Source: Escherichia phage vB_Eco_mar003J3. From it: a DNA stretch of 64,000 nt. The stretch is taken from the sequence record NC_048203.1; one strand, given 5' to 3'. Positions 303-40,131 of this stretch are shown piece by piece. The first letter of the stretch is position 1, and every line of letters begins with the position of its first letter. Made by a program: the position numbers and the translations under genes. The notes beneath the pieces were generated by a model that was given only the letters and a program-made list of their open reading frames with translations, did no database searches and was not told where the DNA came from.

Positions 303-866
303 TCAGCTAAAGGTGCAAATATTTTTAGGGTCTCCCCCAAGAGCCTTATATCTCTTTCGGAGTCCATTATCAGATAGTCCAAGTTCTCTTGAAGCTATAG
401 CCCAGGAGAAGTTTCGTACCCAATACTCTATATCTTCTTTTGTAATATCTCTATTCTTAATCCTAGCCGAAGCAGTACACTTTAAGCAGGCTTTTGAGGA
501 TTTATGCTTAGTATCACCACAAATAGGACAAACATCCGTTCTTCTACTAATATTGTTATCAGAACATGTTTTTATTACGTGCTCTTCTTTACTAAGAACT
601 TGTAGGTTGCTTAGTTCAAAATTTGCCGGATTTCTATCTTTATGGTCTACTTCTTTAGAGGAATAAAGATCTTCTAAATCTTTAAATACTCTGCATAATA
701 GTCTAGATATTAAAAGAGTATGCTCAACACCATTTTTACTTAGCTTAACACATGGATAACCTTTATTGTTAAGATAAGTAGCTATTTCTCTGTTAACATG
801 CAATGAGTAAACTTTGCCTGTTTCAGAAATTTTATACATAGGAAATTCAGGTATTGTCTTAAACAT
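303..866 (-). CDS. HNH homing endonuclease
   Basis: 187 aa; HNH-like core VDHKDRNPANFELSNLQVL plus C-terminal Cys cluster CPICG...CLKC. Confidence 0.7.
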   Translation of the reverse strand: MFKTIPEFPMYKISETGKVYSLHVNREIATYLNNKGYPCVKLSKNGVEHTLLISRLLCRVFKDLEDLYSSKEVDHKDRNPANFELSNLQVLSKEEHVIKTCSDNNISRRTDVCPICGDTKHKSSKACLKCTASARIKNRDITKEDIEYWVRNFSWAIASRELGLSDNGLRKRYKALGGDPKNICTFS

Positions 867-880
867 ACTATTTTCTTATC

Positions 881-951
881 TGGCAGGGGTAAAGGTATTC
901 GAAACCTTTTCATGGGTTTTGGAGGCCCACTAGCAACCTATGCGTACCCCC
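881..951 (-). other. degenerate tRNA-like element
   Basis: Acceptor GGGGGTA/TACCCCT, T-arm AAGGT-TTCGAAT-ACCTT and CCA present, but only 71 nt with non-canonical D and anticodon arms. Confidence 0.3.
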
Positions 952-960
952 ATTATTAAT

Positions 961-1035
961 TGGCACACCCACGGAGAATTGAACTCCGATTCTCAGATTG
1001 AAATCCTGATGTCCTAACCATTAGACGATAGGTGC
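961..1035 (-). tRNA. tRNA, anticodon TTC (Glu) by manual fold
   Basis: 75 nt cloverleaf; acceptor GCACCTA/TGGGTGT, D stem GTCT/GGAC, anticodon loop ATTTCAA, T-arm CGGAG-TTCAATT-CTCCG, encoded CCA. Confidence 0.6.
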
Positions 1036-1044
1036 ATTAAATTT

Positions 1045-1126
1045 GGTGGGGGATGGAGGACTCGAACCTCCGCGTGATATACCCGGTCTACAGCCAGGCG
1101 CCGTCGCCACTGAGCCAATCCCCCAT
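1045..1126 (-). tRNA. tRNA-Tyr (anticodon GTA)
   Basis: Acceptor GGGGGAT/ATCCCCC perfect, anticodon stem CCTGG/CCGGG with loop CTGTAGA, extended variable region, T-arm GGAGG-TTCGAGT-CCTCC, CCA. Confidence 0.7.
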
Positions 1127-1248
1127 ATTTGAATGAAAAGTAAGTCGGTTAAACTCAAGGTGGAATATTTCAGGATTTCCTGACTTTACCCCTAAAAGCA
1201 ACTCGCTTAATTACTTCTCATTCAGATATGTTTCCAAATTAGATAAAT

Positions 1249-1278
1249 ATTATATCAAGTTTTAAGGCACTTGAGCAA
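1249..1278 (-). promoter_or_regulatory. sigma70-like promoter (-35 TTGCTC, 18-bp spacer, -10 TATAAT)
   Basis: Read on minus strand; lies upstream of the minus-strand tRNA pair. Confidence 0.4.
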
Positions 1279-1314
1279 GTCAAACTTTAAAGAACTTGCT
1301 CAGTGCTGTATCAG

Positions 1315-1590: not shown

Positions 1591-1620
1591 TCGTTAACTC
1601 CTTCATCAATTTATATAACT

Positions 1621-1650
1621 ATTATAACAGAAATCTTAAGTAAAAAGCAA
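1621..1650 (-). promoter_or_regulatory. sigma70-like promoter (-35 TTGCTT, 18-bp spacer, -10 TATAAT)
   Basis: Minus-strand reading of aagcaa ... attata. Confidence 0.45.
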
Positions 1651-1680
1651 GTACATTTTTAAAATTTCTGCTTGGAGGAG

Positions 1681-2115: not shown

Positions 2116-2124
2116 ATGTAATCT

Positions 2125-2644: not shown

Positions 2645-2661
2645 ATAGTCTCCTAGTTAAT

Positions 2662-2833: not shown

Positions 2834-3343
2834 TTAATTATTTCGGGCATATTCCCCATGAAGTTTCTCTCTCAGTTGAATTAGAGCTTCATTTGCTGCT
2901 TCAGGAGTACTGTGCAGCCCTGCGGAGTATGACTTACCTTTAAACATTATTCTACCCTGCCACTGACCAGATGCTTTGTGGTAGGATACTCCCTTAAATC
3001 CGCTAGTATTCCTAGAAGATTTACTAGCATTATGAGTATTAGTGGTACTATCCGCTGCTCTTAAATTTAAAGGATGTATGTTTAACTTATTGCAGTCTTT
3101 ATGATCAATCATTTCCGGCCTATACCCATAATATAGTATAAATACTATGATATGAGCTAAGTAATCTTGGTGATCAACGTTAACTCTGATATACCCAGAG
3201 CTTTTGTGCAAAGATCCCGCAGGTTTATTGGCAAACTTAGTATTAAATATCTTCTCCTCTCTGGAGTTTCCGGAGAGCGGATTCCACACCAGTACACCAT
3301 CTTCTAAACGGAATCTATAAAGTATAGACTCATAGTCTAGCAT
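2834..3343 (-). CDS. HNH homing endonuclease
   Basis: 169 aa; IDHKDCNKLNIHPLNLRAA HNH core; C-terminal SGFKGVSYHK...W.GRI AP2-like region. Confidence 0.75.
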   Translation of the reverse strand: MLDYESILYRFRLEDGVLVWNPLSGNSREEKIFNTKFANKPAGSLHKSSGYIRVNVDHQDYLAHIIVFILYYGYRPEMIDHKDCNKLNIHPLNLRAADSTTNTHNASKSSRNTSGFKGVSYHKASGQWQGRIMFKGKSYSAGLHSTPEAANEALIQLREKLHGEYARNN

Positions 3344-7577: not shown

Positions 7578-7649
7578 TACCGACCGTAGGATTCGAACCT
7601 ACATCTTCCACCAGTTACGGCTTGATAATACCAATTATACTAGGACGGC
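7578..7649 (-). tRNA. tRNA-like gene, anticodon arm not resolvable (possible pseudo-tRNA)
   Basis: Acceptor GCCGTCC/GGTCGGT (one mismatch) and T-arm GTAGG-TTCGAAT-CCTAC clear; no 5-bp/7-nt anticodon arm found; no CCA. Confidence 0.4.
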
Positions 7650-7687: not shown

Positions 7688-8170
7688 CTAACCAAAGTTA
7701 GTAAATTCTTTATGTAAGGATTCTCTTAATATCTTAGAGGCCTCGAAAGCCTCTTCCGCAGTTTTAAACCCTCTTTTACTGTAATTTTTTCCTTCATGTC
7801 TTACTTGGTATCTCCAGGAAGAGCCTTCCCAACTTACTCCTTTGTACCCAGAAGTATTATTGCATTGTTGGTTTCTATTCGCATTGTTTTGCGATCTAGA
7901 GGCGTCCCTTAGATTATTTTTCCTATTATTTCTAGGATTAGTATCCTTATGATCTACTTCTTCAGGCCTATATCCATAGTACATAATAAACAATAAGACA
8001 TGCAGTTGATAGGTGTCGCCCTGAAATCCCACATCTGGATGTGATTTCTTATTATTGGCACAACACTCTTTCAAACCTTTCTTTGTTTTCCTATATAGTA
8101 TCCCATTATCAGGATCAGCTACAAAATATTTTTCAAGTATTTCTTTAGTAGGGTATTCTTTCCTTTTCAT
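7688..8170 (-). CDS. HNH homing endonuclease
   Basis: 160 aa; EEVDHKDTNPRNNRKNNLR core; SGYKGVSW...WRYQV AP2-like C-terminus. Confidence 0.75.
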   Translation of the reverse strand: MKRKEYPTKEILEKYFVADPDNGILYRKTKKGLKECCANNKKSHPDVGFQGDTYQLHVLLFIMYYGYRPEEVDHKDTNPRNNRKNNLRDASRSQNNANRNQQCNNTSGYKGVSWEGSSWRYQVRHEGKNYSKRGFKTAEEAFEASKILRESLHKEFTNFG

Positions 8171-15057: not shown

Positions 15058-15912
15058 TTACACCGTAAATGGATATGCAATAGCAGGATGGTGTTCATAG
15101 CCACGAACAGTAAAATCATCTTTACTTACCCACGTTAATACATCATCCAAAGTTCTAATATTTGGATTGATTTCTAAAGTAGGAGGTGCAAAAGGTTCAC
15201 GATCGAATTGCTTGTGCTCCATCAGAACATTATACTGATCTTCATAGATATGAAGATTAATAATCTTTTGACGAGCAATACCTGGCTTAAGACCTGTAAT
15301 CTGTGCCATAATAGCTAGAAGTGCATAGCATTGCACCATATTAAATACTTGGCCCAGCAAGAAATCATTAGACCTCTGGAAAGAGTTTAGGTATAGTGTA
15401 TCACCTAAAATAGAGAATTGATGGGTATGCATACACGGACGTAGGCATCCTTTACGAAATTCCCCAGGGTTCCAAAAAGTTAAAATTTCTCCACGATCGT
15501 CAATCCCTCTTTTCAAATTATGATAGACTTTGGCTAACTGATCAAATACCATACCATCAGAATTAGTCCAATGACGTCCTTGAACACCATAGACTCGTCC
15601 CATATCATCCTCGCCTTTACGGAATGGATTACCTAGCCAGGCAATATTTTCATTTGCATTAGCATTCCATGTATTAACACCAATAGCGCGGAATTGTGCT
15701 GCTGAGTCGTACCCACGGAGATATCCGATCATTTCCATTATTGCTTGTTTAGCAAATGCTTTACGAGTAGTTACTAGCGGCAGTTCTCCTGCTCCTACGT
15801 TAAAGGTAAAGTCTGCATCAATAATGGTTAGGCAACGAACCCCTGTTCTAGGATTCGTTACCCATACACCCTCTTCAATAATACGTTTTCCAGTTTCAAT
15901 ATATTGGCGCAT
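15058..15912 (-). CDS. thyA: thymidylate synthase
   Basis: 284 aa; [12 protein letters not shown] catalytic Cys region and other ThyA blocks. Confidence 0.9.
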
Positions 15913-16439
15913 TAATAAGTCACCAGTTCTTGTACAAAAGATAAACTTTTGTCTGCATTATGCCCTACTGCATAGTCCATCCTAGTTGCTGTTGAATTAG
16001 TCATAGTAATATGATGGTGAAGATGTACATCAGCAGATAATGGTGTAACTGAATTAATAGTAGATACATACGCCATATCTAGATGATTATTGACGTACAT
16101 TTCAAGAAGCAGAGTTGCTCCTCCTAATACTACAGTTACTTCTTCCTTGAGGAAATCAGGCAGACTGTATCCAATATTACTTATGCGTGTGGCTGATCCT
16201 ACAGAGTTAGGTAGTGGTCTATTTGCATAAATAAATAGGTCAGAATCTCCTAGTATTCTTTTTTGCAGAGTCTCAGGGAAGGCTAACCAAGTCCCTGCTC
16301 CTACAATAATATTATCAGGTGCTAGAGAATCCAAAGTAGCATAGAAGATATCTAGTTCTTCTTTGAAAGAACCCCAGGGGAGCTTACCATTAAGGCCGAA
16401 CTCCCCATTCGGCCCAGTTGCATAGATTGCTGCTATCAT
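15912..16439 (-). CDS. dihydrofolate reductase
   Basis: 175 aa; [27 protein letters not shown]-terminus; start overlaps thyA stop. Confidence 0.85.
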
Positions 16440-16948
16440 TTATTAAGTTCCTCTAGTGACGGAATAGTACCTTGAAATTCTTCTAATCGTGCAAAATCCC
16501 CTTGTTTTTGTACTCTAAGGTTATTGGCTTTTTTAATTGCTAAAGAGAGATCTTCATAGTTAAATACTCCCCCATATACACCTTGAATACGAACATACCA
16601 TTTTTGTCTCTGCTTATTCCAACTAATCCCAGAATAGCCTGATTTATTTGGTATTTTTCTGTTTTGCTTATTCTGCTTACTAGTAGATTTCCTAAGATTA
16701 TCCCACTTATTGTTAAGACCATCCCTATCCTTATGGTCTACTTCCTCCGGCATGTAACCCTCCATGTATAGAAAGGCTAACCTATGGGCATACTCTTTGG
16801 TACTATCTATACCTATAACTAAGTACCCGTCTCTCTCATAGCCTGCCACGCTTCCTGCCTTCTGGTTAGCTATGTCGATTAATCTAATAAATTCTCCCGT
16901 TTCCGGGAGATATTTAAATAGTTCCTTTAATCTTTGTTGTGTTACCAT
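16436..16948 (-). CDS. HNH homing endonuclease
   Basis: 170 aa; EEVDHKDRDGLNNKWDNLR; paralog of 39601-40131. Confidence 0.75.
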   Translation of the reverse strand: MVTQQRLKELFKYLPETGEFIRLIDIANQKAGSVAGYERDGYLVIGIDSTKEYAHRLAFLYMEGYMPEEVDHKDRDGLNNKWDNLRKSTSKQNKQNRKIPNKSGYSGISWNKQRQKWYVRIQGVYGGVFNYEDLSLAIKKANNLRVQKQGDFARLEEFQGTIPSLEELNK

Positions 16949-18093
16949 TAAAACATATCACTAAATTCATTACCCAAATCTTTTAGAGTATCCATAGATG
17001 TTTCTGTGACTTGACCTACGCGGTAGGCTGCACCAATCTGAATCTCTTGCGGAGCAGGTTGTAGAGAAGTAGTATCCAACCAGTTCATGATCCACGGAAT
17101 AGGGTTCTTAGTAATTACAGGTAAGTGGCTTGGCCATTCTACACCAATGTGCATAAATGCGTTACGTCCTACAAAGTAAAGGTATTCTTCAAGCAGTTCT
17201 GCGTTCAAACCAATCAGACTACGGCCTTTAAAGATAAAGTGACCCCATTCAATCTCAGTTTTCAGAGTTTTTAGGAGTTGTGTTGGTGCTTTAGCTAATG
17301 CTTCATCTACCAGATCTTTATCAAACTGCTGGAACATAATCTGGATGATAGCTTTAGACATTTGAGTATGTAGAGCTTCATCTTTAGCTATTAATTGCAG
17401 GTTCTTAGCAATACCTTGCAGAATATCGTTCTCTGCTAGAGCAAAGGTACATGCAAAAGATGCGTAGAACTGCATTGCTTCCAGACCGTAGATTGCAAAG
17501 TAAGCATCTAACAGCTTAGCCTGAGTTTCACGTTTAACTTCAGGGAACTCAGTTTCTGGATAAGTATTATCACCACGATGATCACGTACTGCAAGGAAAT
17601 ACTGACCTAACAGATACAATTCATCAAACAGTTCAACAGAATCTGCGATACGTGCAAATGCTTCTTGGTTTTTAGTTACAGAATCAATAAATTCTGCTGG
17701 ATCAGTCAGAACGTTACGAATAATGTTACTATATGCACGGCTGTGTAGATCTTCGAAGTAGCTCCACTGTTTGAGCATGCCTTCCAGTTCAGGACGGCTT
17801 ACTAGTGGCATAATAGCTGCTTCAGGAGCACGACTAATGAAAGAATCTGTTTGAACCTGCCAAGCTAAGTTCAGCAGTGTGATTTCTTGTATTTCTCTTG
17901 GTAGATTAGGCCATTGCTTTTTGTCACTTTCTAGACTGATTTCAGTTTCAGTCCAAAACTGACTCCTCTGCAAGAGTGCAAGTCGTTCTAGCTCTGGATG
18001 AGCAACGCGAACATAGTCTGCTACTCCCAGAGCATCTCCGAGAAACAGTTCTTCAGAATCAGGATTCCAGTTCAGATTTAGTAAAGTTGTCAT
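16948..18093 (-). CDS. nrdB: ribonucleotide reductase small subunit
   Basis: 381 aa; NrdB-like sequence by recollection; gene context with nrdA. Confidence 0.85.
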   Translation of the reverse strand: MTTLLNLNWNPDSEELFLGDALGVADYVRVAHPELERLALLQRSQFWTETEISLESDKKQWPNLPREIQEITLLNLAWQVQTDSFISRAPEAAIMPLVSRPELEGMLKQWSYFEDLHSRAYSNIIRNVLTDPAEFIDSVTKNQEAFARIADSVELFDELYLLGQYFLAVRDHRGDNTYPETEFPEVKRETQAKLLDAYFAIYGLEAMQFYASFACTFALAENDILQGIAKNLQLIAKDEALHTQMSKAIIQIMFQQFDKDLVDEALAKAPTQLLKTLKTEIEWGHFIFKGRSLIGLNAELLEEYLYFVGRNAFMHIGVEWPSHLPVITKNPIPWIMNWLDTTSLQPAPQEIQIGAAYRVGQVTETSMDTLKDLGNEFSDMF

Positions 18094-18124
18094 TGATTTT
18101 CCTCTTTCTCACTATTTCAGGAAT

Positions 18125-18153
18125 ATTATAGCAAATCTGGTAGCGATTAGCAA
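18125..18153 (-). promoter_or_regulatory. T5-type early promoter (TTGCTA, 17 bp, TATAAT)
   Basis: Minus-strand reading; upstream of nrdB. Confidence 0.55.
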
Positions 18154-18159
18154 GTAAAA

Positions 18160-18642
18160 TTATAAACTATCAAGCTCCAATAGTTTAGCATCGCGCCATT
18201 CTATAGCATCCTCTAATTCTTTAAATGTTTTAGTATGTTTTACACCTTTCCTAGCTATTTGGACTTGATAAGATCCACTTGCTTTTTGGTGTATATTTTT
18301 AATACCTAACTTATTGTCCTTATGTGCCCCAACGTTCTTTCCATTACTAAATCTGTCGGAGGCTAATAAATTAATTGCTCTATTATCATGACGTATTCTA
18401 TTATCATGATCTACTTCTTTTGGGATGTACCCATGAGTAATATAGAATGCTAGGATATGTGCATAGTATTTTGTACCTCTTACCTGCATTACTATGTATC
18501 CTGAGCATTTTTCCAAAGAGCCTGCCTCTTTGCCTGCAAACTTAGTATTAAATGATTTATCTTCTCTAGGTTTGTGGGTAAAGATTCCGGTTTCTGGATT
18601 ATAGTCAAATAACTCAGCTATTTCTTTGTATTTTTCTTCCAT
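18160..18642 (-). CDS. HNH homing endonuclease
   Basis: 160 aa; EVDHDNRIRHDNR core; inserted between nrdA and nrdB. Confidence 0.75.
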   Translation of the reverse strand: MEEKYKEIAELFDYNPETGIFTHKPREDKSFNTKFAGKEAGSLEKCSGYIVMQVRGTKYYAHILAFYITHGYIPKEVDHDNRIRHDNRAINLLASDRFSNGKNVGAHKDNKLGIKNIHQKASGSYQVQIARKGVKHTKTFKELEDAIEWRDAKLLELDSL

Positions 18643-18673
18643 AATCTAAAATTACAGCCATTATAGACCTAAT

Positions 18674-18693
18674 AAAGGGGCGAGAGCCCCTTT
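18674..18693 (-). terminator. AAAGGGGC-gaga-GCCCCTTT hairpin
   Basis: Between nrdA stop and HNH start; U-rich on both strands. Confidence 0.45.
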
Positions 18694-18698
18694 ATTTA

Positions 18699-21112: not shown

Positions 21113-21601
21113 TTATTCATGTCTGGCGAATTCGCCATGTAAACTTTCTCGCAGCTTAACTGCATACTCATTAGCTTCTTCTGGAGAATTGAAACCACTC
21201 TTAGAGTAACATTTACCAGCAATAGTAATTTTTACCTGCCAGTATGTGCCATTCTTATATACGCCTTTATAGCCAGAAGAATTATCTTTTCTTAGTCTAG
21301 TATTACATGAGTTTTGGGTATGGGTTGCTTCTCTTAAATTTCCTGGTCTATTATTAAGAGTATTACCGTCTTCATGATCTACTATGTTTTCTGGTTGATA
21401 CCCCCTACCCATAATAAAGGAGATAATATGGGCATAGTAATATGTGCCCTTAAAAGATACTTGTACATACCCTGATGAAGTAGCCGATCCTGCTCTCTTA
21501 ACTTTACCTGATTTCAGGCGTCTCATTAAGATTCCAGTAGAGTCATCTATAAAGAATACTTTCTCCAGCTCTTCTTTGGGCGGGTAGATTAATTTTCCCA
21601 T
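21113..21601 (-). CDS. HNH homing endonuclease
   Basis: 162 aa; IVDHEDGNTLNNRPGNLR; SGYKGVYKNGTYWQ AP2-like. Confidence 0.75.
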   Translation of the reverse strand: MGKLIYPPKEELEKVFFIDDSTGILMRRLKSGKVKRAGSATSSGYVQVSFKGTYYYAHIISFIMGRGYQPENIVDHEDGNTLNNRPGNLREATHTQNSCNTRLRKDNSSGYKGVYKNGTYWQVKITIAGKCYSKSGFNSPEEANEYAVKLRESLHGEFARHE

Positions 21602-21663
21602 TATAACTTCCTAATACAAAGGATAAAAGAGCCTGGATATTTTCATACCCAGGCTCATCTGTC

Positions 21664-21906
21664 TTACCATTTAGTTTTATCGACCATATCTCTTAATTTC
21701 TCTCGTATTTCCTTAGCCATTAAAATATCTACGGAAGTATTCAATTCATTATAGTTGAACGGTCGATTTGGATTAGAGGCTACAATTTTCCATGCTAGAG
21801 AAGTCTTAGGACTTTCTTCACCCTCTTTACGGGTGATCATGTTTGCAGCACTCAACGAAGTGCGGTGAATTTTAGTTTTGCGATGTAGATGTACGACATT
21901 TCCCAT
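21664..21906 (-). CDS. hypothetical protein (about 80 aa)
   Basis: Track ORF 21664-21984 trimmed to Met at 21906 to avoid 77-nt overlap with phoH. Confidence 0.3.
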   Translation of the reverse strand: MGNVVHLHRKTKIHRTSLSAANMITRKEGEESPKTSLAWKIVASNPNRPFNYNELNTSVDILMAKEIREKLRDMVDKTKW

Positions 21907-21907
21907 A

Positions 21908-22666
21908 TTACACCAGCCCCATCTCTTTAAAGATGTCATAGAATGCTTTAGATTCTCGGGAACGTACGTTCTCAATAAGTTCAATCATTGAGAATGGAGA
22001 GTAATCATACCTCTTATACACTTCCATTAGAAGTGCTAAGCCTGAGTCACCCTTAATGTCTTTCTGAGCGATATCTCCGCAAATGACTAAGCGACAATCT
22101 TGTCCTACACGAGTTAGGAGACAGATCATTGCTTCGACTGAGATATTCTGAGCTTCATCGACAATCACATAGGAGTTGTTGAAAGTTCGTCCACGAGCAT
22201 GCTCGATAGCCAGGAATTTAACTTTCTGACGTTCTACATACCCTTTATATGCCTGATCACCTATAGCCCATTTCATGCCATCTGCAATCGGTTCCAGCCA
22301 AGGTTCTAGCTTCTCAGCCAGGTCACCCGGTAGCATCCCAAGAGATTTGCCTAGAGGTTCGTTAGGACGCACTAAAATCACTTGCTCAATATTAGAGCGA
22401 GGATTAGTAAGTTCCTGAGCAGCAAGAACGGAAGGGATAAAAGTCTTACCCGTACCTGGTTCACCAATACCAACGGTAATGGTGTTGTTCTTGATCATAT
22501 TGATATATGATTTTTGCTCTTTGTTTTTACCTTCTAGGGACTTAGCAACGGGAATAGCAAAATCAGAGAAGTTTCCCTGAATAATGTTATCTTCATAGTT
22601 GCTGTTACGCTTTCTTGACCCGTTACGGGTTTCTCTTTTCTGACGCAGTTTTCCCATAAATAACAC
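21908..22666 (-). CDS. phoH: PhoH-like ATPase
   Basis: 252 aa; Walker A GEPGTGKT, Walker B VIVDEAQN. Confidence 0.85.
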   Translation of the reverse strand: MLFMGKLRQKRETRNGSRKRNSNYEDNIIQGNFSDFAIPVAKSLEGKNKEQKSYINMIKNNTITVGIGEPGTGKTFIPSVLAAQELTNPRSNIEQVILVRPNEPLGKSLGMLPGDLAEKLEPWLEPIADGMKWAIGDQAYKGYVERQKVKFLAIEHARGRTFNNSYVIVDEAQNISVEAMICLLTRVGQDCRLVICGDIAQKDIKGDSGLALLMEVYKRYDYSPFSMIELIENVRSRESKAFYDIFKEMGLV

Positions 22667-22730
22667 TCCTATAGTGTACTTCGCTAACAGAGGATCAACA
22701 AAAAGATCTTGTTTATCAACTTACAAATAT

Positions 22731-22759
22731 ATTATACCAATATCTACAGTAAAAAGCAA
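22731..22759 (-). promoter_or_regulatory. T5-type early promoter (TTGCTT, 17 bp, TATAAT)
   Basis: Minus-strand reading; divergent from the nrdD promoter. Confidence 0.6.
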
Positions 22760-22959
22760 CTACAATTTTAAATAAGCCTATGACATTGCAGTTAAATAAA
22801 AAATTTGCTTGCTTATAGAGGGAGATGTATGATACTAGATAATCATTTTATATCGCGTACATGGGCGCGGGATTATAGTATAAAATAGGGTAAGGTGTCA
22901 ACAACAATTTTCCAAAAATTGAGCCAGATCAAGTTACTTAGCTCTTTAGAAAATTTATA

Positions 22960-22988
22960 TTGACATACGCCTTCAAATGAGCTATAAT
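22960..22988 (+). promoter_or_regulatory. consensus sigma70 promoter (TTGACA, 17 bp, TATAAT) for nrdD
   Basis: Perfect hexamers; SD GAAGGAG precedes ATG at 23018. Confidence 0.7.
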
Positions 22989-23017
22989 AGTAGTCTTAGT
23001 TAGAGAAGGAGAATATA

Positions 23018-24892
23018 ATGAATCACAATGATCAGATGAAGATTAAAATAATGCAGTCTTTAATTACAAACTGCAAGGAAATTATCGAAGGTTCAGCAGA
23101 TGAAGAGCTGCTGTTTAATAACGCCAATAAACCTTCAGAACGCTTCCCTACTCAAAGGGATATGCTAGCAGGTGAGTTGAGTAAGTATCTGATTCTAGAA
23201 GAAATGCCGATTCAGATTCGAAATGCTCATATGATTGGTGATATTCACTTCCACGATGCTGACTATGCAGCTTTAGGTATGACTAACTGTTGCCTCGTTG
23301 CTTTGGAAGATATGTTGAAGAATGGTATGAAGGTTGGTAATGCTGAAATCAGTACGCCAAATTCTATCACTACTGCGGCTGCTATTACAGCTCAGATTAT
23401 TACTCAGGTTAGCTCCCATCAATATGGTGGTACTTCTGTAGACCGATTAGATGAAGTACTGGCTCCTTATGTTCGTAAGTCTTATGATAAGAATCATGCG
23501 TTTGCAAAACGTTGGACTAAGGATGAAGCCAAAGCATCTGTAATGGCTACGGAAATGACTGAGAAAGAAGTTTACGATGCCTGTCAAGGTCTAGAGTATG
23601 AAATCAATACGATGTTCAACTCTAATGGTCAGAGTCCATTTATTACCTTTGGTTTTGGTCTAGGAACTTCCTGGGAAGCACGTCTTGTACAGAAAGCAAT
23701 CTTAGAAGTGCGTATGGATGGTTTGGGTATCAATAAACGTACAGCTATCTTCCCTAAACTGGTATTTGTTCTGCGTGACGGCGTAAACATGAAACCTGGT
23801 GATGTTAACTATGATATCAAGAAGTTAGCCATGAAATGTACTGCCGAACGTATGTACCCCGACTATATCAGTTATGATAAGGTTGTAGAAGTTACTGGTG
23901 ACTATAAAGTCTCTATGGGTTGTCGTTCATTCCTGGCTGCTGCGGAAGATGGTGAAACTTCTGGTCGTAACAACTTAGGCGTTGTTTCCGTAAACCTTCC
24001 TCGAATCGCTATCGAAGCAGAAGGAAATATTGATCTATTCTTCGATCTGCTTGAGCTGCGTGTTGATACTGCACTTAAAGCATTGGAGTGGAGGGTTGAT
24101 CGCCTGAAATACATTCAAGCTAAAGCTGCGCCCATCCTCTATATGTCAGGAGCCTTTGGATTACGTCTGGGGCCAGATGAGTATGTGTTTGATCATTTCT
24201 ACAGGCGTGCTTCTGTATCTCTAGGGTACATTGGTTGCCATGAAATGTTGCAGTTCATGTTTGGTAAAGACGTAGATACAATGTCTGACACCTGTATCAA
24301 GTTTGTACAACGTGTTTTACAGTATATGCGTGATCGTGCAGATCAGAAGAAGGAAGAAACTCAGCTAGGATACAGTTTGTATGCAACACCTTCTGAATCC
24401 CTATGTGATCGCTTCTGTCGTCTAGACCGTGAATATTTCCCAGAGCATGAAGATATTCTTGGTAAAGGGTACTATACTAACTCACATCACCTTGATGTGG
24501 AACGTAAGGTTGCTCCAAACGTGAAGTTTGATTATGAGTCTAACTTTACCCCAATTGCTTCTGGTGGGTGCATTTCCTATGTGGAATTACCTGATATGAA
24601 GAAATTCCCTGATGCACTGGAATGGGTTATTAACTATGCTGCAAGTAAGGTTCATTACTTCGGTATTAATACCCCCGTAGATTCCTGTGGTGAGTGTGGA
24701 TTCTTGGGTGAGACTATCGCTTCTGAGGACGGATTCAAGTGTCCTATCTGTGGAAACCATGATCCTGAAACTTTAGAGGTAACTCGTCGAGTTTGTGGTT
24801 ATCTTGGGAACCCAGGAGCACGTCCTTTTAACCCAGGTAAACAACATGAGGTTATGGGTCGAGTGAAACATAGAGACGTTCGCGCTAAATAA
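23018..24892 (+). CDS. nrdD: anaerobic ribonucleoside-triphosphate reductase
   Basis: 624 aa; C-terminal Cys cluster and glycyl-radical motif RVCGYLG. Confidence 0.9.
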   Translation: MNHNDQMKIKIMQSLITNCKEIIEGSADEELLFNNANKPSERFPTQRDMLAGELSKYLILEEMPIQIRNAHMIGDIHFHDADYAALGMTNCCLVALEDMLKNGMKVGNAEISTPNSITTAAAITAQIITQVSSHQYGGTSVDRLDEVLAPYVRKSYDKNHAFAKRWTKDEAKASVMATEMTEKEVYDACQGLEYEINTMFNSNGQSPFITFGFGLGTSWEARLVQKAILEVRMDGLGINKRTAIFPKLVFVLRDGVNMKPGDVNYDIKKLAMKCTAERMYPDYISYDKVVEVTGDYKVSMGCRSFLAAAEDGETSGRNNLGVVSVNLPRIAIEAEGNIDLFFDLLELRVDTALKALEWRVDRLKYIQAKAAPILYMSGAFGLRLGPDEYVFDHFYRRASVSLGYIGCHEMLQFMFGKDVDTMSDTCIKFVQRVLQYMRDRADQKKEETQLGYSLYATPSESLCDRFCRLDREYFPEHEDILGKGYYTNSHHLDVERKVAPNVKFDYESNFTPIASGGCISYVELPDMKKFPDALEWVINYAASKVHYFGINTPVDSCGECGFLGETIASEDGFKCPICGNHDPETLEVTRRVCGYLGNPGARPFNPGKQHEVMGRVKHRDVRAK

Positions 24893-24980: not shown

Positions 24981-25667
24981 ATGGTACGAAGGAAGTTAGA
25001 TAAAGACACTATCAATAAAGATTTAGAGCCGAGAAGAATTAAGCTAATAAGTGAGTATTCTGGAATCCTTAATAAAGGCACATTCATATGTAGTGTAGGT
25101 CATACATGGGAAGCTACTGTTAATAATGTAAGGAATAGCAAATCTGGCTGTCCAATATGCGCAGGTACTTTTAAACTTACTAAAGATTCGGTAAATGAAG
25201 GGTTACGTAGTAGGGGTATTACTCTTATTGGAGAGTATAAAAATAATGCTACTAAAACTCTTTTTGAATGTGAGCATGGGCATAGGTGGGAAGCCACAGT
25301 AGGCAATGTAAAGAATAAAAATTCTGGGTGTCCTGTGTGCGATACTGATTGGAATACCCCTGGTTTTATATACATTATGCGTAGTAGTATGGGAACTAAA
25401 ATAGGAATTAGTATCTCTCCTGAAAGACGGTGGAAAGAGATAGTTAAAAGCTCCAATATACTAGATTTATATATTTTTGGTGTCTATTCAATAGATTCTG
25501 GTACCAAATCTAAAAGTAGGTCTATCGAGAAACAGACTCATGAATATTTTTCAGAATATAGATTAAAGTATACAGGATTTGCTGGATGTACTGAATTCTT
25601 TGATATATCTCCCATAGCCGTAGAAAAGCACTTAATTAATAATGGGTGTATAAAGGTAGAAAAATAA
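24981..25667 (+). CDS. putative homing endonuclease: duplicated zinc-ribbon module plus GIY-YIG-like core
   Basis: 228 aa; two repeats of W-EATV-NV-N-SGCP-C; then GFIYIMRSSMGTKIGIS...RRWKE. Confidence 0.4.
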   Translation: MVRRKLDKDTINKDLEPRRIKLISEYSGILNKGTFICSVGHTWEATVNNVRNSKSGCPICAGTFKLTKDSVNEGLRSRGITLIGEYKNNATKTLFECEHGHRWEATVGNVKNKNSGCPVCDTDWNTPGFIYIMRSSMGTKIGISISPERRWKEIVKSSNILDLYIFGVYSIDSGTKSKSRSIEKQTHEYFSEYRLKYTGFAGCTEFFDISPIAVEKHLINNGCIKVEK

Positions 25668-28785: not shown

Positions 28786-28833
28786 TTGTCAAAATAAATT
28801 GTCATTGACAATTTGGATGGATTATGTAATAAT
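28786..28833 (+). promoter_or_regulatory. candidate promoter with palindromic operator-like repeat
   Basis: ATTGTCA-T-TGACAAT perfect palindrome containing TTGACA, 17 bp from AATAAT. Confidence 0.35.
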
Positions 28834-28852: not shown

Positions 28853-29305
28853 ATGTCATTCACACAGCAGGAACTTTTAGATAACTTCCGATATGAAGAT
28901 GGTAAGTTATTTAGAACTACAGGAAGAAATGCAGGGAAAGAATGTTGTGTTTCTACGGGTAACGGATATTATCGTATATCTCTAGGGAATAGGACTATGC
29001 TTCGGCATAGAGCAATATTTTTAATGCATCATGGATACTTACCTGATTTAGTAGATCATGTGAATACTATAAAAGGCGATGATCGTATTGAAAATCTTAG
29101 AGAGCAGACAGTATCCGGTAATCTAAGAAATATCAAATATAAGAAAGGAATGCATGTTTACCCTTCTGGTAGTAAGAACTGGCAAGTAGTATTTACTATT
29201 AATCGTAAACGAGTAGTTAAAGGAACATATGATAACTATGAAGTTGCATGTTCTATGGCCAAGATGTTTAGAGGTCAATTATACGGTAGAGAATCAATCC
29301 AGTAA
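28853..29305 (+). CDS. HNH homing endonuclease
   Basis: Start at MSFTQQ (SD GGAGGTGAGG); LVDHVNTIKGDDRIENLR core. Confidence 0.7.
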   Translation: MSFTQQELLDNFRYEDGKLFRTTGRNAGKECCVSTGNGYYRISLGNRTMLRHRAIFLMHHGYLPDLVDHVNTIKGDDRIENLREQTVSGNLRNIKYKKGMHVYPSGSKNWQVVFTINRKRVVKGTYDNYEVACSMAKMFRGQLYGRESIQ

Positions 29306-29313: not shown

Positions 29314-29343
29314 TTGCAAGGGAGTATTATTTTATAGTATAAT
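29314..29343 (+). promoter_or_regulatory. sigma70-like promoter (TTGCAA, 18 bp, TATAAT)
   Basis: Heads a roughly 490-nt ORF-free leader. Confidence 0.45.
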
Positions 29344-35124: not shown

Positions 35125-35343
35125 TTGATGAGAGGATCAATTATGGCAATGACAATAACACTTCCAAAGATTCAAGCAAAACTTAATTTGCTCTCCATAG
35201 CAAGAATCAATTACCAGGATAGTATCGGCACTCCAAACCAGAAAGCGTACAAAGATGCGTGGTTGAAAGAAGCTGCTGATTTAGCTGGTATGGCTGCGCA
35301 GTATAGTAAAGAACTCAAAATGGAAATCGCAGATGATGAATAA
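35125..35343 (+). CDS. hypothetical protein (72 aa)
   Basis: SD GAGAGGA upstream. Confidence 0.45.
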   Translation: MMRGSIMAMTITLPKIQAKLNLLSIARINYQDSIGTPNQKAYKDAWLKEAADLAGMAAQYSKELKMEIADDE

Positions 35344-36307
35344 TGTAAAAGACTTTATTAAACGTTGTCAAGAAGCGTACTACCAGGGAATGAGTCTTAT
35401 TTCCGATGAAGAATATGATCGTCTGATTAAAAGATTCCCACTAGAGGAAGAAATCGGACCGAAAGGTGATATCCCTCATTTGTATCGTATGTATTCTTTG
35501 CAGAAAGTCTATTACGATCGTGGTGATAAAGCTCCATTCAACCCACTTGGTCAGGTTGAAACTGATAAGTTAGATGGTTGTGCGATTTCTCTATTATATA
35601 TTAATGGTGAGTTTGTTCAAGCGTTAACTCGTGGTAACGGTATTCTAGGAAATGATGTAACGCATAATGTTAAAATGCTGAACATCCCCAAAACTATTTC
35701 CCAAAAAGTACCAACTCAAATCACTGGTGAAGTTCTCATTACTAAAGAAGTAGAGAACAAACGTAACTATGCTTCTGGTGCTATTAACCTGAAAGATAGT
35801 GATGATTTCATGCAACGTATTGGTGAAGGTGGTTTAATCTTCGTTGCATATGGTATCCAGTGTTCAGCGGAAACAGTCGGTATTACAGAAGCCTATTTAA
35901 AAGATATGCTTTGGCTAGAGAATGAGAACTTCTTGACAGTTGTTAATGTTCGTTCCTTTTTTAAATGGATTCCGACGGACGGTAAAGTTGTTCGTATTAA
36001 CGACAACAATAAATTCTTCCGTGAAGGTTGGACTAATAAATTTCCTCGTGGTGCATTTGCTATTAAAGAGGATGAAGAAGGCGAAATTACCACACTTGTT
36101 AAAGTTGAATGGCAAGTAGGGGCTTCTGGTAAAGTAACTCCAGTTGGTTATTTCGAGCCGGTGATTATTGATGATGCCACAATCGTTAAAGCAACTCTTA
36201 ATAACGTTGATTATATTAACGCTCTCGATTTAGAGATCGGTTGCCAGATTCGAGTGATTCGTGCTGGTGGTGTAATCCCTTGTATAGTAGAGCGAGTATA
36301 CGACTAA
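35333..36307 (+). CDS. NAD+-dependent DNA ligase, adenylation (N-terminal) subunit
   Basis: 324 aa; LISDEEYDRL Ia-like start and KxDG adenylation motif KLDG. Confidence 0.8.
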   Translation: MMNNVKDFIKRCQEAYYQGMSLISDEEYDRLIKRFPLEEEIGPKGDIPHLYRMYSLQKVYYDRGDKAPFNPLGQVETDKLDGCAISLLYINGEFVQALTRGNGILGNDVTHNVKMLNIPKTISQKVPTQITGEVLITKEVENKRNYASGAINLKDSDDFMQRIGEGGLIFVAYGIQCSAETVGITEAYLKDMLWLENENFLTVVNVRSFFKWIPTDGKVVRINDNNKFFREGWTNKFPRGAFAIKEDEEGEITTLVKVEWQVGASGKVTPVGYFEPVIIDDATIVKATLNNVDYINALDLEIGCQIRVIRAGGVIPCIVERVYD

Positions 36308-36506: not shown

Positions 36507-37289
36507 TTGATGAAAATCGAAATTCCAACACAATGTCCCTCTTGTGGTTCTAAGCTAGATCTTGTCAACGGGCAATTATTCTGTAGGAATAAGTCCAACT
36601 GTCCAGCACAATCAAGTAAGTTAATCGAGAACTTCTGCACAAAAATGAAGTTAAAGGGCTTTGGCCCGAAAACTATTGAGAAGCTGGAACTGACCAAGAT
36701 CTCAGAACTGTTTTACCTGACCGAAGAAGATTTGGTCGGAGCTGTGGGTAGCAAGGTTGCCGCTAAGTTGATTAGCGAGTTAAATACTAAGGTTCGCGGA
36801 GACATTGACTTTGGTTCGGTTCTCGGTTCTTTAGGAATTCCTCTTATTGGAGAGGTTGCAGCAAAGAAACTGTCCCAAAATTGCACTAGCTTCCACGATG
36901 TGAAGGCTGACGGCAAGGCTGGAGAAAATTACAAAACCTGGCTAAATTCCCCACAAGGCAAGGATGTTATTGAATTACCCTGGAAATTCTCAACTGGTAT
37001 TCGAGGTACTAAAGCTGATATCATCATTACGGATGATTTAGTTGCCCAGCCAAATGGAATCACGATCTGTATTACCGGATCTTTGCAAGATTTTGCAAAT
37101 CGAACGGATGCAACAAACTATTTAGAAAGTCTAGGATATACGGTTAAGAAATCCGTTACCAAAGACGTCAAATACCTAATCTGTGAGGATGAATCAAAAC
37201 GTTCTTCCTCATCTTATAAGAAAGCCGAAACGAATGGGATAGAAATCCTGTCGATTAAAGAACTATTGGAGAAAAATAATAATGTCTAA
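36507..37289 (+). CDS. NAD+-dependent DNA ligase, C-terminal subunit (Zn-finger, HhH, BRCT-like)
   Basis: 260 aa; CPSCGSKL...C..KSNCP zinc finger, then HhH-like and BRCT-like regions. Confidence 0.7.
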   Translation: MMKIEIPTQCPSCGSKLDLVNGQLFCRNKSNCPAQSSKLIENFCTKMKLKGFGPKTIEKLELTKISELFYLTEEDLVGAVGSKVAAKLISELNTKVRGDIDFGSVLGSLGIPLIGEVAAKKLSQNCTSFHDVKADGKAGENYKTWLNSPQGKDVIELPWKFSTGIRGTKADIIITDDLVAQPNGITICITGSLQDFANRTDATNYLESLGYTVKKSVTKDVKYLICEDESKRSSSSYKKAETNGIEILSIKELLEKNNNV

Positions 37290-38049
37290 ACTGAACTGGA
37301 ACGTAGAAGGTGTAACCGAGTCTCTGAAAGCAAAAGCCACTGCTCTGGGTGTTGCTGTAATCTCTCAAGAACAAGTAGCTGCTATCGCTGCTGAACTGGC
37401 TACCGAGACTGGTAAAGACGTTACCGCTCGCTCTGTTGGCTCTAAGCTGCGTAAAGAAGGTTTCGAAGTACAGAAAGCTAACGAAGTACAGAAATCCCCG
37501 TGGACTCCTGAGCAGGAAGCTGAACTAGTTGATTTCCTGAACGCTCATGCTGGTCAGTATACTTACGCTGAAATCGCTGCTGCTGTAGCTGGTGGTCAGT
37601 TCGGTACTAAGCAGGTACAGGGTAAGATCCTGAGTCTGGAAATGACTGCTTCTGTTAAGCCAACTGAAAAAGCTGCTGCTGTTCGTTCCTTCACTCCTGA
37701 CGAAGAAACTGATTTCGTTAATCAGGTTGTTGCTGGTGCTACTATTGAAGCTATCGCTGCTCACTTCGGTCGTAATATTAAGCAGATCCGTGGTAAAGCT
37801 CTGAGCCTGCTTCGTGAAGGTCGTATCGCTGCTATGCCGGTACAGGAAACATCAAGTGCTAAGACTCGTGAAGATCTGTTAGAAGGTCTGGATCTGGCTT
37901 CCATGACTGTTGCAGAAGTTGCTGAGAAAACTGGTAAGTCTGAGCGCGGTGTTAAATCTATGCTGTCTCGTCGTGGTCTGGTTGCTAAGGACTATGATGG
38001 TGCTGCTAAGCGTGCTAAACTGGATGCAAAAGCTGCGGCTGCTGAATAA
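37282..38049 (+). CDS. hypothetical protein with four internal HTH-like repeats
   Basis: 255 aa; roughly 50-aa unit repeated four times; Ala-rich. Confidence 0.45.
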   Translation: MSKLNWNVEGVTESLKAKATALGVAVISQEQVAAIAAELATETGKDVTARSVGSKLRKEGFEVQKANEVQKSPWTPEQEAELVDFLNAHAGQYTYAEIAAAVAGGQFGTKQVQGKILSLEMTASVKPTEKAAAVRSFTPDEETDFVNQVVAGATIEAIAAHFGRNIKQIRGKALSLLREGRIAAMPVQETSSAKTREDLLEGLDLASMTVAEVAEKTGKSERGVKSMLSRRGLVAKDYDGAAKRAKLDAKAAAAE

Positions 38050-38066
38050 TCTGGTAAATTAAACCT

Positions 38067-38100
38067 AAGGGGAGGGGGCTATGCTCCTTCCCCTTTTTGC
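38067..38100 (+). terminator. rho-independent terminator
   Basis: AAGGGGAGG...CCTTCCCCTT then TTTGCATTT. Confidence 0.6.
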
Positions 38101-38131
38101 ATTTAGAAGGCACGAAAGCGTGCAAAGGAGA

Positions 38132-39604
38132 ATGACCTTGTTTAACGTGCAAGCTGTAGTGTTGAAGATGCTTCTCGCTTCTGAACAGAAGCAAATAGCA
38201 TTGGAAACATTCTCAAAACTGCATAAAGATCATTTTAATGACGCTTTCTCCTCAATTTACCAAGCCGTCCAGAATTATTATAAGAAATATAACGCAATGC
38301 CGTCCATTGACGCACTGATGCTTGAGGCCAATAGGAACGCCCGCCTTTCTCAAGCTCTTGTCGTCTTAGCTAACACTCAAATTCCAGAAGTGAGCATGGA
38401 ACAGGCACTTGAAGTCCTAGAAGCTGAATATACACAGGATCTATTCCTGAAACTTCTAGAAACAGACGTGCTTCAAGATTTAACAATGCTGGATCAGGGA
38501 GAAATTCTCAATCGAGTTGCCTCCCTTCACTTAAAATTAGAAGAGAAAGTAACGAATACTGGAAAGGTATTCAACGCAGACACAATGCGTATTTTCCAGA
38601 GAGAAGAAGATACCAAACTGAACTTGATCGCTCTTGGTATTTGTAATGAGTTCGACGCTCAAATTGGTTTAGCTCGCACAGAAACGTTACTGCTTGGTGG
38701 TTGGCGTGGTACTGGTAAATCCATTATCTGTTCAAACATACAGGTTCAGCAATATTTGAATGGGGATATTGCTCCATACTTCTCAATTGAGATGAAAGAA
38801 CATGAAGTATTTAGACGTAATCTAGCCATGTTAGCTGGCGTATCAGCACTAGCAATGCGTAATAATACTCTAGAAGGTGCAGCTCTGTTGAGATTAGCCA
38901 GAACTAGAGCTAGGATGTTTAACGGCGGTGAAGAGCTTTTCGATAACTTCGTTAAACAGTACACAATGGCTAAGATGAGTGATTTCTACGATATGGAAAG
39001 TAAGCTAATAGAAGGGTATGAGCTACATACTCCTATGATTATTGTTTATGACCCTGAACTGTCCATTACAACAGTTGACGTAGAATTAAATAAATTAGTT
39101 GCTAGATATGGTGATAAAGTTACAGTAGCTTTACTGGACTATATTAACCAAACCCGACTTCCAGACTCTAAAACCATTGATATGTATGACTGGAAAGAAC
39201 AGATGGTTGTTAGCTCGTCTTTCAAATCTATCTGCCAGAAACATAACGTGGCTGGTGTAGCCCCTTACCAGATCGATCAAGATGGTAGAACACGTATGTC
39301 AAAGGGGATTCTTGATTCCGCAGACATGGCTGCTAATCTTAATGCTGCAAAAGCTGATAATGGTCAAGGTGCTATTATGTTTGACTTCGTTAAGACCCGT
39401 TCTTCTGATAGCGTGAAGTTTATGCCTAAAATGAACTGGGAAACCCTACGGATGGATAACACTACCAACCTAGCAATGGAAGATATATCTCAAATGGAAG
39501 CTGAGTTCGTTATCCCTATTGAGAAGGATAAGCCGGCTCAATCTAAACGTGCTAAGAAAGACAAAGCTGAAAATTCAACAGGTGAACAGGCCAGCGATAT
39601 ATGA
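38132..39604 (+). CDS. DnaB-like replicative helicase
   Basis: Start moved to MTLFNVQ (SD AAGGAG); Walker A GGWRGTGKS; RecA-like C-terminal domain. Confidence 0.65.
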   Translation: MTLFNVQAVVLKMLLASEQKQIALETFSKLHKDHFNDAFSSIYQAVQNYYKKYNAMPSIDALMLEANRNARLSQALVVLANTQIPEVSMEQALEVLEAEYTQDLFLKLLETDVLQDLTMLDQGEILNRVASLHLKLEEKVTNTGKVFNADTMRIFQREEDTKLNLIALGICNEFDAQIGLARTETLLLGGWRGTGKSIICSNIQVQQYLNGDIAPYFSIEMKEHEVFRRNLAMLAGVSALAMRNNTLEGAALLRLARTRARMFNGGEELFDNFVKQYTMAKMSDFYDMESKLIEGYELHTPMIIVYDPELSITTVDVELNKLVARYGDKVTVALLDYINQTRLPDSKTIDMYDWKEQMVVSSSFKSICQKHNVAGVAPYQIDQDGRTRMSKGILDSADMAANLNAAKADNGQGAIMFDFVKTRSSDSVKFMPKMNWETLRMDNTTNLAMEDISQMEAEFVIPIEKDKPAQSKRAKKDKAENSTGEQASDI

Positions 39605-40131
39605 TAACACAGGAACGACTAAAAGAACTGTTTGACTACTCCCCAGATACTGGGGAGTTTACTAGAAAAGTATCTAGAGGCAATCAGAAAGCTGGTAGTA
39701 TTGCGGGTACTCTAGATAGTGGATACATACGGATAAAGGTAGATAGAAAATTATACTTTGCACACCAACTAGCCTTCCTATATATGGAAGGATATATGCC
39801 AGAGGAAGTAGACCATATTAATCGAATTACTTGGGATAATAGATGGATTAATATTAGGCCATCCACCCGGCAAGAAAATAGCAGAAATAAAACAGCTAGA
39901 AGTAAATCTGGATACTTGGGAGTTTTCTGGTTTAAGCGGGATCACAAATGGCATGTAAGAGTAGTAAATTCTATGGGAGAAAAAGTTCACGGTGGGCTCT
40001 TTAATTACGCAGATCTAAAGCTTGCAGTCACTAAAGCCAATGAACTACGTCTACAATTACATGGAGAAAATGCTGTTCAAGAGATCTTTGATCCAACTAA
40101 GTATCCTTCACTGGAGGAGTTAAATTCATGA
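39601..40131 (+). CDS. HNH homing endonuclease
   Basis: 176 aa; EEVDHINRITWDNRWINIR; paralog of 16436-16948. Confidence 0.75.
   Translation: MITQERLKELFDYSPDTGEFTRKVSRGNQKAGSIAGTLDSGYIRIKVDRKLYFAHQLAFLYMEGYMPEEVDHINRITWDNRWINIRPSTRQENSRNKTARSKSGYLGVFWFKRDHKWHVRVVNSMGEKVHGGLFNYADLKLAVTKANELRLQLHGENAVQEIFDPTKYPSLEELNS

Follow-up and report, generated by a model that had tools for sequence, protein, structure and literature searches.

The 64,000-nucleotide stretch of Escherichia phage vB_Eco_mar003J3 analyzed here (NC_048203.1; hereafter the window) raises the question of whether the many small nuclease genes interleaved with its genes for nucleotide metabolism and replication are mobile elements or a fixed part of the phage. 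Nine open reading frames (ORFs) are concerned, namely, eight HNH genes, designated H1 to H8 in coordinate order, and a ninth designated the T5orf172 gene (24981-25667). Very probably, all nine are homing endonuclease genes (HEGs) of the free-standing kind, located in the early region of a T5-like phage; eight are of the HNH type and one is of the T5orf172/GIY-YIG type. The observations behind this reading are the domain content of the proteins and their intact catalytic residues, purifying selection on the genes, the presence of each gene in some relatives and its absence from others, exact junctions, near-identical copies in phages with diverged backbones, and exchange tracts and breakpoints that coincide with gene edges. 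T5-like phages are already known from annotation and publications to show this phenomenon, and the finding is the recognition of a known feature, because heg annotation and literature exist for T5 and because each of the genes is 99-100% identical in deposited genomes.

Nuclease families and predicted folds

The eight free-standing HNH genes had been proposed from the letters of the sequence in a first-pass annotation. All eight ORFs were found at the coordinates given there, and 8/8 passed the gathering cutoff of the Pfam HNH_3 model (PF13392; 29.3-49.8 bits versus 24.8) with E-values of 6.5e-7 to 2.6e-13. Seven of the eight were members of phrog_99 (E 1e-41 to 1e-60), while H1 was of a separate type, matching phrog_59 and having an N-terminal NUMOD4 domain. 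The residues D75, H76, N88, and N100 (H6 numbering) were invariant in seven window proteins and across 17 family members, and H1 could be aligned with the catalytic D-H and N of the HNH core. The HNH_3 proteins are predicted to adopt the beta-beta-alpha-metal fold. The two proteins that had been singled out as clear paralogs proved to be H4 and H8, which share 55% amino acid identity and both end in a PSLEELN tail, compared to identities of 26-45% among the other phrog_99 members. A hidden Markov model (HMM) built from the eight HNH proteins found no additional copy in the whole 64-kb window, and an NCBIfam scan of five of the proteins gave zero matches.

A C-terminal AP2-like module, claimed by the first-pass annotation for most of the HNH proteins, was upheld for the seven phrog_99 proteins and not for H1. 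The Pfam AP2 cutoff (33.3 bits) was reached by none of the proteins, with their isolated C-terminal halves scanned. The best score was 28.0 bits for H2; H4 gave an E-value of 0.037, and the other window proteins gave no AP2 match. Because these Pfam AP2 matches were only sub-threshold, the assignment rests on profile and fold evidence. The profile of the 17-member family matched I-HmuI (Protein Data Bank [PDB] entry 1u3e) with an E-value of 2.7e-8, and its only other significant matches were the AP2 domains of TEM1 (E 0.0016) and WRI1 (E 0.0072), both plant AP2/ERF structures. An AlphaFold2 model of H6, the one member modeled (from a 7-sequence alignment), had a pLDDT score of 86.7. In a fold search, the top PDB match of this model was again I-HmuI (E 3e-4, probability 1.0), and the model superposed on the TEM1 AP2 domain with a root mean square deviation of 1.0 Å over 55 residues (probability 1.0). 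These data support a predicted architecture for the seven phrog_99 proteins of an I-HmuI-like core followed by an AP2-like C-terminal DNA-binding module, H1 being excluded. The module is modeled in H6, and its proposed extension to all seven is supported by their alignment.

The T5orf172 gene had been guessed to encode a GIY-YIG/zinc-ribbon endonuclease, and the domain data agreed with this guess. The matches to T5orf172 (26.5 bits, cutoff 20), MUG113 (32.4 bits, cutoff 22.3), the treble-clef domain DUF4379 (49.2 bits), and CapR (34.5 bits) were all above cutoff, and the ORF also matched phrog_681, "endonuclease" (E 1e-50). The motif GFIYIM...GTKIGIS...PERR, read by eye from the sequence alone, is compatible with a GIY-YIG motif.

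Occupancy and insertion junctions among relatives

A megablast search with the first 44 kb matched ~570-590 phage records. The best matches, with 94-97% identity, were T5-like phages of Salmonella and Escherichia from the Demerecviridae (Markadamsvirinae, mostly Epseptimavirus); every match was fragmented, and the coverage of the window by any single matching record was at most ~90-92%. As judged from these matches, the window is from a T5-like phage with an Epseptimavirus-type backbone.

For occupancy, the query was the gene together with its 400-bp flanks, and coverage of at least 80% was taken to mean that the gene was present at that site. Among 427 to 482 related records per site, the occupancy of the nine genes was 0.5-14% (Table 1). 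All nine genes were therefore polymorphic for presence and absence, and with occupancies from 2/427 to 60/439, they clearly do not have the syntenic and invariant arrangement that the first-pass annotation had named as the outcome that would speak against mobility. In a matrix of 13 fetched relatives, each gene was missing from most of the phages and was 99-100% identical in at least one, and the identity of the backbone to the window was 94-96% for Epseptimavirus and 88% for Tequintavirus. H2 was absent from IrmaTschudi and SUT_E1620, as seen both in their annotation tables and in the coverage matrix. Over the syntenic ~45 kb, 1 HNH gene was counted in BD13, 5 in T5, and 8 in KKP_3831, where one is split into two ORFs; the eight of the window are at the top of the sampled range and are not unique. 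Some HNH genes of the relatives occupy sites that are empty in the window.

The H2 copy of KKP_3831 (L007 1796-2305) has 99% nucleotide identity and is annotated as two ORFs of 279 and 213 bp, both of which were matched by the HMM of the eight HNH proteins. This copy is apparently a HEG in the process of decay.

Exact junctions against empty alleles were resolved for H1, H4, H5, H6, H7, H8, and the T5orf172 gene, and the ORFs flanking the insertions were full length. H8 is an exact, ORF-precise insert of 527 bp; the empty allele reads ...GATAT/ATGAGT... (slash, insertion point), and the ATGA stop/start overlap is recreated at both ends. H4 is likewise an exact, ORF-precise insert; it is 509 bp long, separates the stop codon of nrdB from the start codon of DHFR, and rebuilds the TAATG and ATGA overlaps. 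H6 and H7 are 508-bp inserts relative to the empty alleles. The H1 cassette comprises ~555 bp (roughly 322-880), and the last ~6 codons of its ORF extend into the tRNA gene at 245-316. H5 brings its own terminator hairpin (18671-18696). The H7 cassette has promoter-like elements before (28805-28833) and after (29314-29343) the gene, and the T5orf172 cassette, located after the nrdD terminator, has promoter-like elements at both ends. The start of H7 was taken to be the ATG at 28853 with the ribosome-binding site GGAGGTGA, as annotated in relatives; the mechanical ORF begins at TTG 28799. An origin of any of the HNH genes within an intron or intein was ruled out, as all junctions lie between intact genes.

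H1, H2, and H3 are all directly upstream of tRNA genes, and the homologue of H2 in phage YZU-L1 is annotated as "endonuclease F-TflVI." For the remaining HNH genes, the first-pass annotation had described precise placement between conserved genes in the series thyA/DHFR/nrdB/nrdA/phoH and between helicase and primase. Such placement was confirmed for DHFR/nrdB, nrdB/nrdA, nrdA/(small ORF)-phoH, and helicase/primase, and none was found between thyA and DHFR. The HEGs sit in spacers or exactly between overlapping stop and start codons, and their insertion is therefore harmless.

The nrdA-nrdB spacer (window 18094-18698; L001 18061-18576; L009 19536-20060) was found to have two HEG insertion points ~50 bp apart. 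These points flank the nrdB promoter, with H5 upstream and the T5 hegH-type gene downstream, and the two HNH genes are unrelated. Two homing endonucleases are listed in this spacer for phage vB_SenS_SB6, which seems to carry both types.

Exchange tracts, proposed mechanism, and alternatives

A co-conversion-like exchange tract was centered on H8. Within this tract, identity was 98-100% to the Tequintavirus T5_ev219 and 85-95% to the Epseptimavirus relatives, the relation being reversed outside. On the basis of these identities, the 2.4-kb patch that holds H8 is deduced to have come from a Tequintavirus-like donor. An exact breakpoint coincided with H6's right edge: leftward, the window was atrejo-like (98-100%, with TrudiGerster at 79-88%), and rightward to ~23400, it was TrudiGerster-like (99-100%, with atrejo at 72-93%), turning 100% BD13-like near 23400. 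The phoH/nrdD-promoter allele to the right of H6 is rare, as it was matched at 99-100% only by TrudiGerster (2/437 records, being one phage and its RefSeq copy), while 434/437 matching records were only 80-90% identical; the H6 site of TrudiGerster is empty. Patches of 100-300 bp were also found beside H4, H5, and H6, in which the identity of noncarriers dropped to 73-91% and that of the carrier was 93-100%.

Differences from the empty-site phages clustered at the host-gene ends touching the HEGs and were mostly synonymous. Codons 1 to 30 of primase had 17 synonymous and 0 nonsynonymous differences, the ends of nrdB had 26 and 16 differences compared to 0 in its center, and the last 48 codons of nrdA had 19. 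Over seven relatives, mismatches up to 100-300 bp away from the nine genes had a density of ~0.09 compared to a background of 0.05 (~1.7x; permutation P of 0.02-0.04), decaying with distance. The dN/dS ratios of the endonuclease genes were 0.05-0.28 (0.05 for H2 versus the phage 2-3 copy, 0.05 for H7, and 0.18 for the T5orf172 gene), from which it was concluded that the coding sequences are under purifying selection. For H8 versus T5 hegJ, dS was ~1.05 and dN/dS was 0.28. Together with exact cassettes and with genes that are 99-100% identical in backbones of 88-96% identity, the tracts and breakpoints at gene edges support the mobile homing elements proposed in the first-pass annotation.

In T5 and T5_ev219, the helicase-primase-polymerase segment is 95-100% identical, but between helicase and primase, identity over the body of the HEG is only 67-79% (window 39601-40131; L006 39805-40335; L009 39614-40147). 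In the comparison of H8 with hegJ, identity resumes within ~15-25 nucleotides of the ORF ends. It looks as if a diverged HEG allele had taken the place of another between conserved flanks.

From these data, we infer that the proteins would be active endonucleases, making either a nick or a double-strand cut at the target positions proposed here, and that the genes would show biased inheritance. During co-infection with a relative lacking the gene, the endonuclease would nick or cut the DNA of that relative near the empty site. The I-HmuI-like HNH core would act beside the sequence read by the AP2-like module; in H1, the target would be read by NUMOD4 and the helix-turn-helix-like tail, and in the T5orf172 protein, it would be read by the zinc fingers. 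Recombinational repair from the carrier genome would then copy the gene and a variable length of flank into the recipient. The site in the carrier would be protected because the insertion splits the target, because the end of the adjacent gene has many synonymous changes, or both. The presumed targets are essential nucleotide-metabolism, replication, and tRNA genes that would be conserved enough to recur in relatives. The predicted target regions are the 5' end of primase, the 5' and 3' ends of nrdB, and the 5' end of nrdA, and these are candidate substrates for HNH-AP2 nicking enzymes.

Several points weigh against this reading. The putative target sites were deduced from divergence patches only. 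Recombination breakpoints also occur away from the HEGs, for example, near 15900 and 23400, and since breakpoints are found where no HEG lies, general mosaicism contributes to them. The flank divergence was only modestly significant (P of 0.02-0.04) and not significant beyond 500 bp. Relatives lacking H3 hold shorter unrelated sequence at that position and no clean empty site, and the H2 empty-site junction could not be aligned automatically in IrmaTschudi and SUT_E1620, where the left flank is too diverged. GenBank/RefSeq duplicates are counted in the occupancies, which also depend on how sensitive megablast is. Promoter-like matches were not enriched in the window, being fewer than in shuffles overall.

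The same cut-and-repair events could instead benefit the carrier phage, the nucleases being weapons of phage-phage interference (localized marker exclusion). This is not mutually exclusive with selfish spread, the two being inseparable by sequence, and it is considered possible though on the unlikely side. It would account for the layout of a "HEG island," in which three HEGs bracket nrdB/nrdA/DHFR and one splits helicase/primase, and it is in keeping with the proposal of Barth et al. that such islands could protect or drive essential operons (PMC10448857). The low dN/dS also points to proteins that are maintained, and the only PADLOC matches, "HEase, homing endonuclease" models (H1, E 2e-58), are listed by a defense database. 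Each gene is nevertheless rare, otherwise similar, viable phages carry anywhere from 1 to 8 such genes, and the KKP_3831 copy is decaying, and such rarity, variable load, and decay fit selfish cycles of gain and loss better than a maintained benefit. Membership in a defense system as such was ruled out, as PADLOC gave only the homing endonuclease models. A housekeeping role, with fixed nucleases serving host DNA degradation, the genomic nicks of T5, or packaging, was suggested by the site-specific nicks carried by T5-type genomes according to their annotation and by the fact that I-HmuI-type HNH enzymes are nickases (PMC3017599). It is extremely improbable: 0/9 of the genes are conserved, and BD13 has a single HNH gene in the whole syntenic region. 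As the nine genes are not conserved, no essential function can depend on them, and the occupancy data rule out this role.

Another possibility is that the genes are accessory cassettes ("morons") carried passively between co-infecting T5-like phages by ordinary recombination, whether homologous or illegitimate, with nuclease activity irrelevant to their spread. The promoter-like elements at both ends of the H7 and T5orf172 cassettes, the mosaic backbone where no HEG lies, and the modest enrichment of flank divergence would all be expected of such cassettes. This explanation was judged very unlikely in view of the invariant catalytic residues and low dN/dS, the ORF-precise insertion between overlapping stop and start codons at two sites, the exchange tract centered on H8, the breakpoint exactly at the H6 edge, and the independent arrival of unrelated HNH genes in the same spacer. 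Furthermore, the relatives F-TflI, F-TflII, F-TflIV, and I-HmuI are experimentally site-specific endonucleases.

If the nine ORFs are homing endonuclease genes, it can be hypothesized that they interact. The HEG between helicase and primase, along with the three around DHFR-nrdB-nrdA, would jointly drive whole alleles of essential genes through the population ("collaborative homing"), and different alleles at the same site would reflect an arms race in which newcomers with shifted specificity displace residents. The arms-race part is based on the comparison of H8 with T5 hegJ (dS of ~1 within flanks of 97-100% identity) and on the unrelated HNH genes 50 bp apart. We regard this hypothesis as tentative and rather improbable. 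If it were true, T5-like phages would be a natural system in which HEG turnover could be measured, together with its part in setting the limits of recombination and the incipient species barriers that separate Epseptimavirus from Tequintavirus.

In annotation, each of the nine ORFs should be given as a mobile, free-standing homing endonuclease gene. Where this phage differs from its relatives by indels, much of the difference would correspond to HEG gain and loss rather than to adaptive content, and the window provides a compact example of HEGs that appear to seed recombination tracts and breakpoints within essential nucleotide-metabolism and replication genes. Current understanding is unchanged. 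The remaining interest lies in the inter-genus H8 tract, the same-site replacement of H8 and hegJ, and the predicted target regions.

Neighboring features and known systems

The backbone genes were named from the annotation tables of the syntenic regions of 2-3, 1Sgal2PP, IrmaTschudi, BD13, Seafire, T5_ev219, KKP_3831, SUT_E1620, and T5, and they are listed in Table 1 with the nine endonuclease genes.

Table 1. Endonuclease genes, backbone genes, and exchange features of the window. Occupancy is given as records with the gene at the same site per phage records matched by megablast; identities are for the near-identical copy.
Feature	Position	Strand	Description	Occupancy	Near-identical copy
H1	303-866	-	NUMOD4 + HNH_3, C-terminal zinc-ribbon/HTH-like tail; after tRNA 245-316	3/433	SUT_E1620, 99.6%
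H2	2834-3343	-	HNH_3 + AP2-like; abuts tRNA-Ser 2745-2833	56/482	
H3	7688-8170	-	HNH_3 + AP2-like; 38 nt upstream of tRNA-like gene 7578-7649	60/439	2-3 and 1Sgal2PP, 100%
H4	16436-16948	-	HNH_3 + AP2-like; between nrdB stop and DHFR start; paralog of H8	2/427 (one phage, KKP_3831, and its RefSeq copy)	KKP_3831, 99.8%
H5	18160-18642	-	HNH_3 + AP2-like; nrdA-nrdB spacer, upstream of nrdB promoter 18125-18153	46/441	1-23, 99.8%
H6	21113-21601	-	HNH_3 + AP2-like; own ribosome-binding site; between terminator hairpin 21629-21656 and nrdA	14/428	atrejo, 99%
T5orf172 gene	24981-25667	+	T5orf172/MUG113 (GIY-YIG-type), two treble-clef zinc fingers + CapR domain; free-standing	13/433	saus132, 99.7%
H7	28853-29305	+	HNH_3 + AP2-like; upstream of replication-origin-binding protein gene	18/439	SB9, 99.3%
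H8	39601-40131	+	HNH_3 + AP2-like; between helicase stop and primase start; T5 hegJ (P-TflX) site	42/439	T5_ev219, 99.8% (T5 hegJ only 72%, nucleotides)
Exchange (co-conversion-like) tract	38700-41100		2.4 kb, around H8		
Rare phoH/nrdD-promoter allele	21602-23400		Small ORF, phoH, divergent promoter region to nrdD start		
tRNA, Phe-like	245-316	-	GAA anticodon by eye; Rfam RF00005 33.4 bits, cutoff 29		
thyA	15058-15912		Relatives' annotation		
DHFR	15912-16439		Relatives' annotation		
nrdB	16948-18093		Relatives' annotation		
nrdA	18699-21092		Relatives' annotation		
DnaB-like helicase	38081-39604		Relatives' annotation		
Primase	40128-41018		Relatives' annotation		
tRNA cluster; nadR/pnuC; RNase H			Relatives' annotation		
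phoH and nrdD; Sir2-like genes; origin-binding protein; ligase A and B; D5			Relatives' annotation		
DNA polymerase			Relatives' annotation		

The tRNA at 245-316 has a noncanonical T arm and was missed by ARAGORN, and it corresponds to tRNA-Phe in the annotation of relatives. A candidate tRNA-Trp to the right of H1 (881-957; CCA anticodon by eye) was rejected, as it was called neither by ARAGORN nor by Rfam at an E-value of ≤0.01; Seafire and T5 annotate a tRNA-Trp at the equivalent position. The two tRNA-like sequences flanking H1 may be tRNA genes decaying beside a HEG. The tRNA-like gene at 7578-7649, next to H3, scored 35.5 bits in Rfam and was not called by ARAGORN, and relatives annotate it as "tRNA-OTHER" or "tRNA-Sec(tca)."

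At the thyA/DHFR junction (15900-16050), two allele classes were distinguished over ~150 bp, with a DHFR gene of 528 or 531 bp. Identity to the window was 99-100% in 2-3 and BD13 and ~80% in IrmaTschudi, Seafire, KKP_3831, SUT_E1620, and 1-23. The junction was without a HEG in every sampled phage. In phage 2-3 (L001 22933-25609 versus window 23018-24892), an 864-bp "endonuclease" ORF overlaps the start of a shorter nrdD, and identity over the 3' part of nrdD drops to 63-65%; by this comparison, the spot is a further nuclease-linked variable site, one at which the window is empty. Two separate ORFs, ligA (35333-36307) and ligB (36507-37289), together encode the NAD-dependent DNA ligase. Their spacer of ~200 bp carries promoters in T5, and the split is kept in every relative examined, with no HEG in the spacer.

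The closest known system is that of the heg genes of T5, which belong to the same phage family and the same HNH_3 family and occupy sites that are partly in common with those of the window. The T5 RefSeq record names hegA, hegC, hegH (nrdB/nrdA, "P-TflVIII"), hegI, and hegJ (helicase/primase, "P-TflX"). The position of hegJ between the D6 helicase and the primase is exactly that of H8, hegH is in the nrdA-nrdB spacer as is H5, and several T5 heg genes are in the tRNA cluster as are H1 to H3 (PMC2330249). In the same source, F-TflI and F-TflII, as well as F-TflIV, all of this cluster, are given as homing endonucleases (Akulenko et al. 2004, via PMC2330249). The likeness does not extend to all of the sequences, as hegJ has only 72% nucleotide identity to H8 although the flanks are 97-100% identical, hegH and H5 are unrelated and inserted ~50 bp apart, and T5 has no counterpart of H4 (DHFR/nrdB), H6, or H7 at those sites. 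In a 2025 comparison of Tequintavirus, HNH HEGs were noted as the variable genes (PMC12639943).

By both profile and fold, the closest solved structure is that of the I-HmuI/I-BasI type (phages SPO1 and Bastille; PDB 1u3e), which has the N-terminal beta-rich region and the HNH core in common with the window proteins. A nicking mechanism is suggested by this likeness (PMC3017599). The gene for I-HmuI lies within a group I intron, and the protein has C-terminal DNA-binding modules of the NUMOD/helix-turn-helix type, whereas the window genes are free-standing and 7/8 have the predicted AP2-like module.

The HEGs of T4-type phages (Seg, Mob) are also free-standing and located in the spacers of tRNA clusters and nucleotide-metabolism genes, with SegB in a tRNA cluster. 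MobE of T4 lies between nrdA and nrdB. These genes differ in that they come from a different family of phages and in that the Seg proteins belong to the GIY-YIG enzymes; beyond the superfamily, the window genes are unrelated to them in sequence. T4-type HEGs spread by cleaving a relative that lacks the HEG, with co-conversion of the flanks, which is localized marker exclusion (PMC2330249). Barth, Dunham, and Seed (2023) described HEGs at exchange boundaries and "HEG islands" that surround essential genes, nrdA among them, and they noted that T5orf172 genes are abundant in T5-like phages (PMC10448857). The window likewise has several HEGs bracketing essential genes and HEGs at exchange boundaries, but that study had ICP1 and the T5orf172 and IPA-HNH classes as its focus (PMC10448857), whereas the dominant class in the window is HNH_3-AP2. 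The HNH-AP2 endonucleases have an HNH core followed by the three-stranded sheet and helix of the AP2 type, as is predicted for the window proteins; the difference is that the Pfam AP2 model, which is largely trained on plants, was below cutoff for every one of them. A fusion of the AP2 DNA-binding domain to HNH was reportedly described by Magnani and colleagues in 2004 for phages and cyanobacteria.

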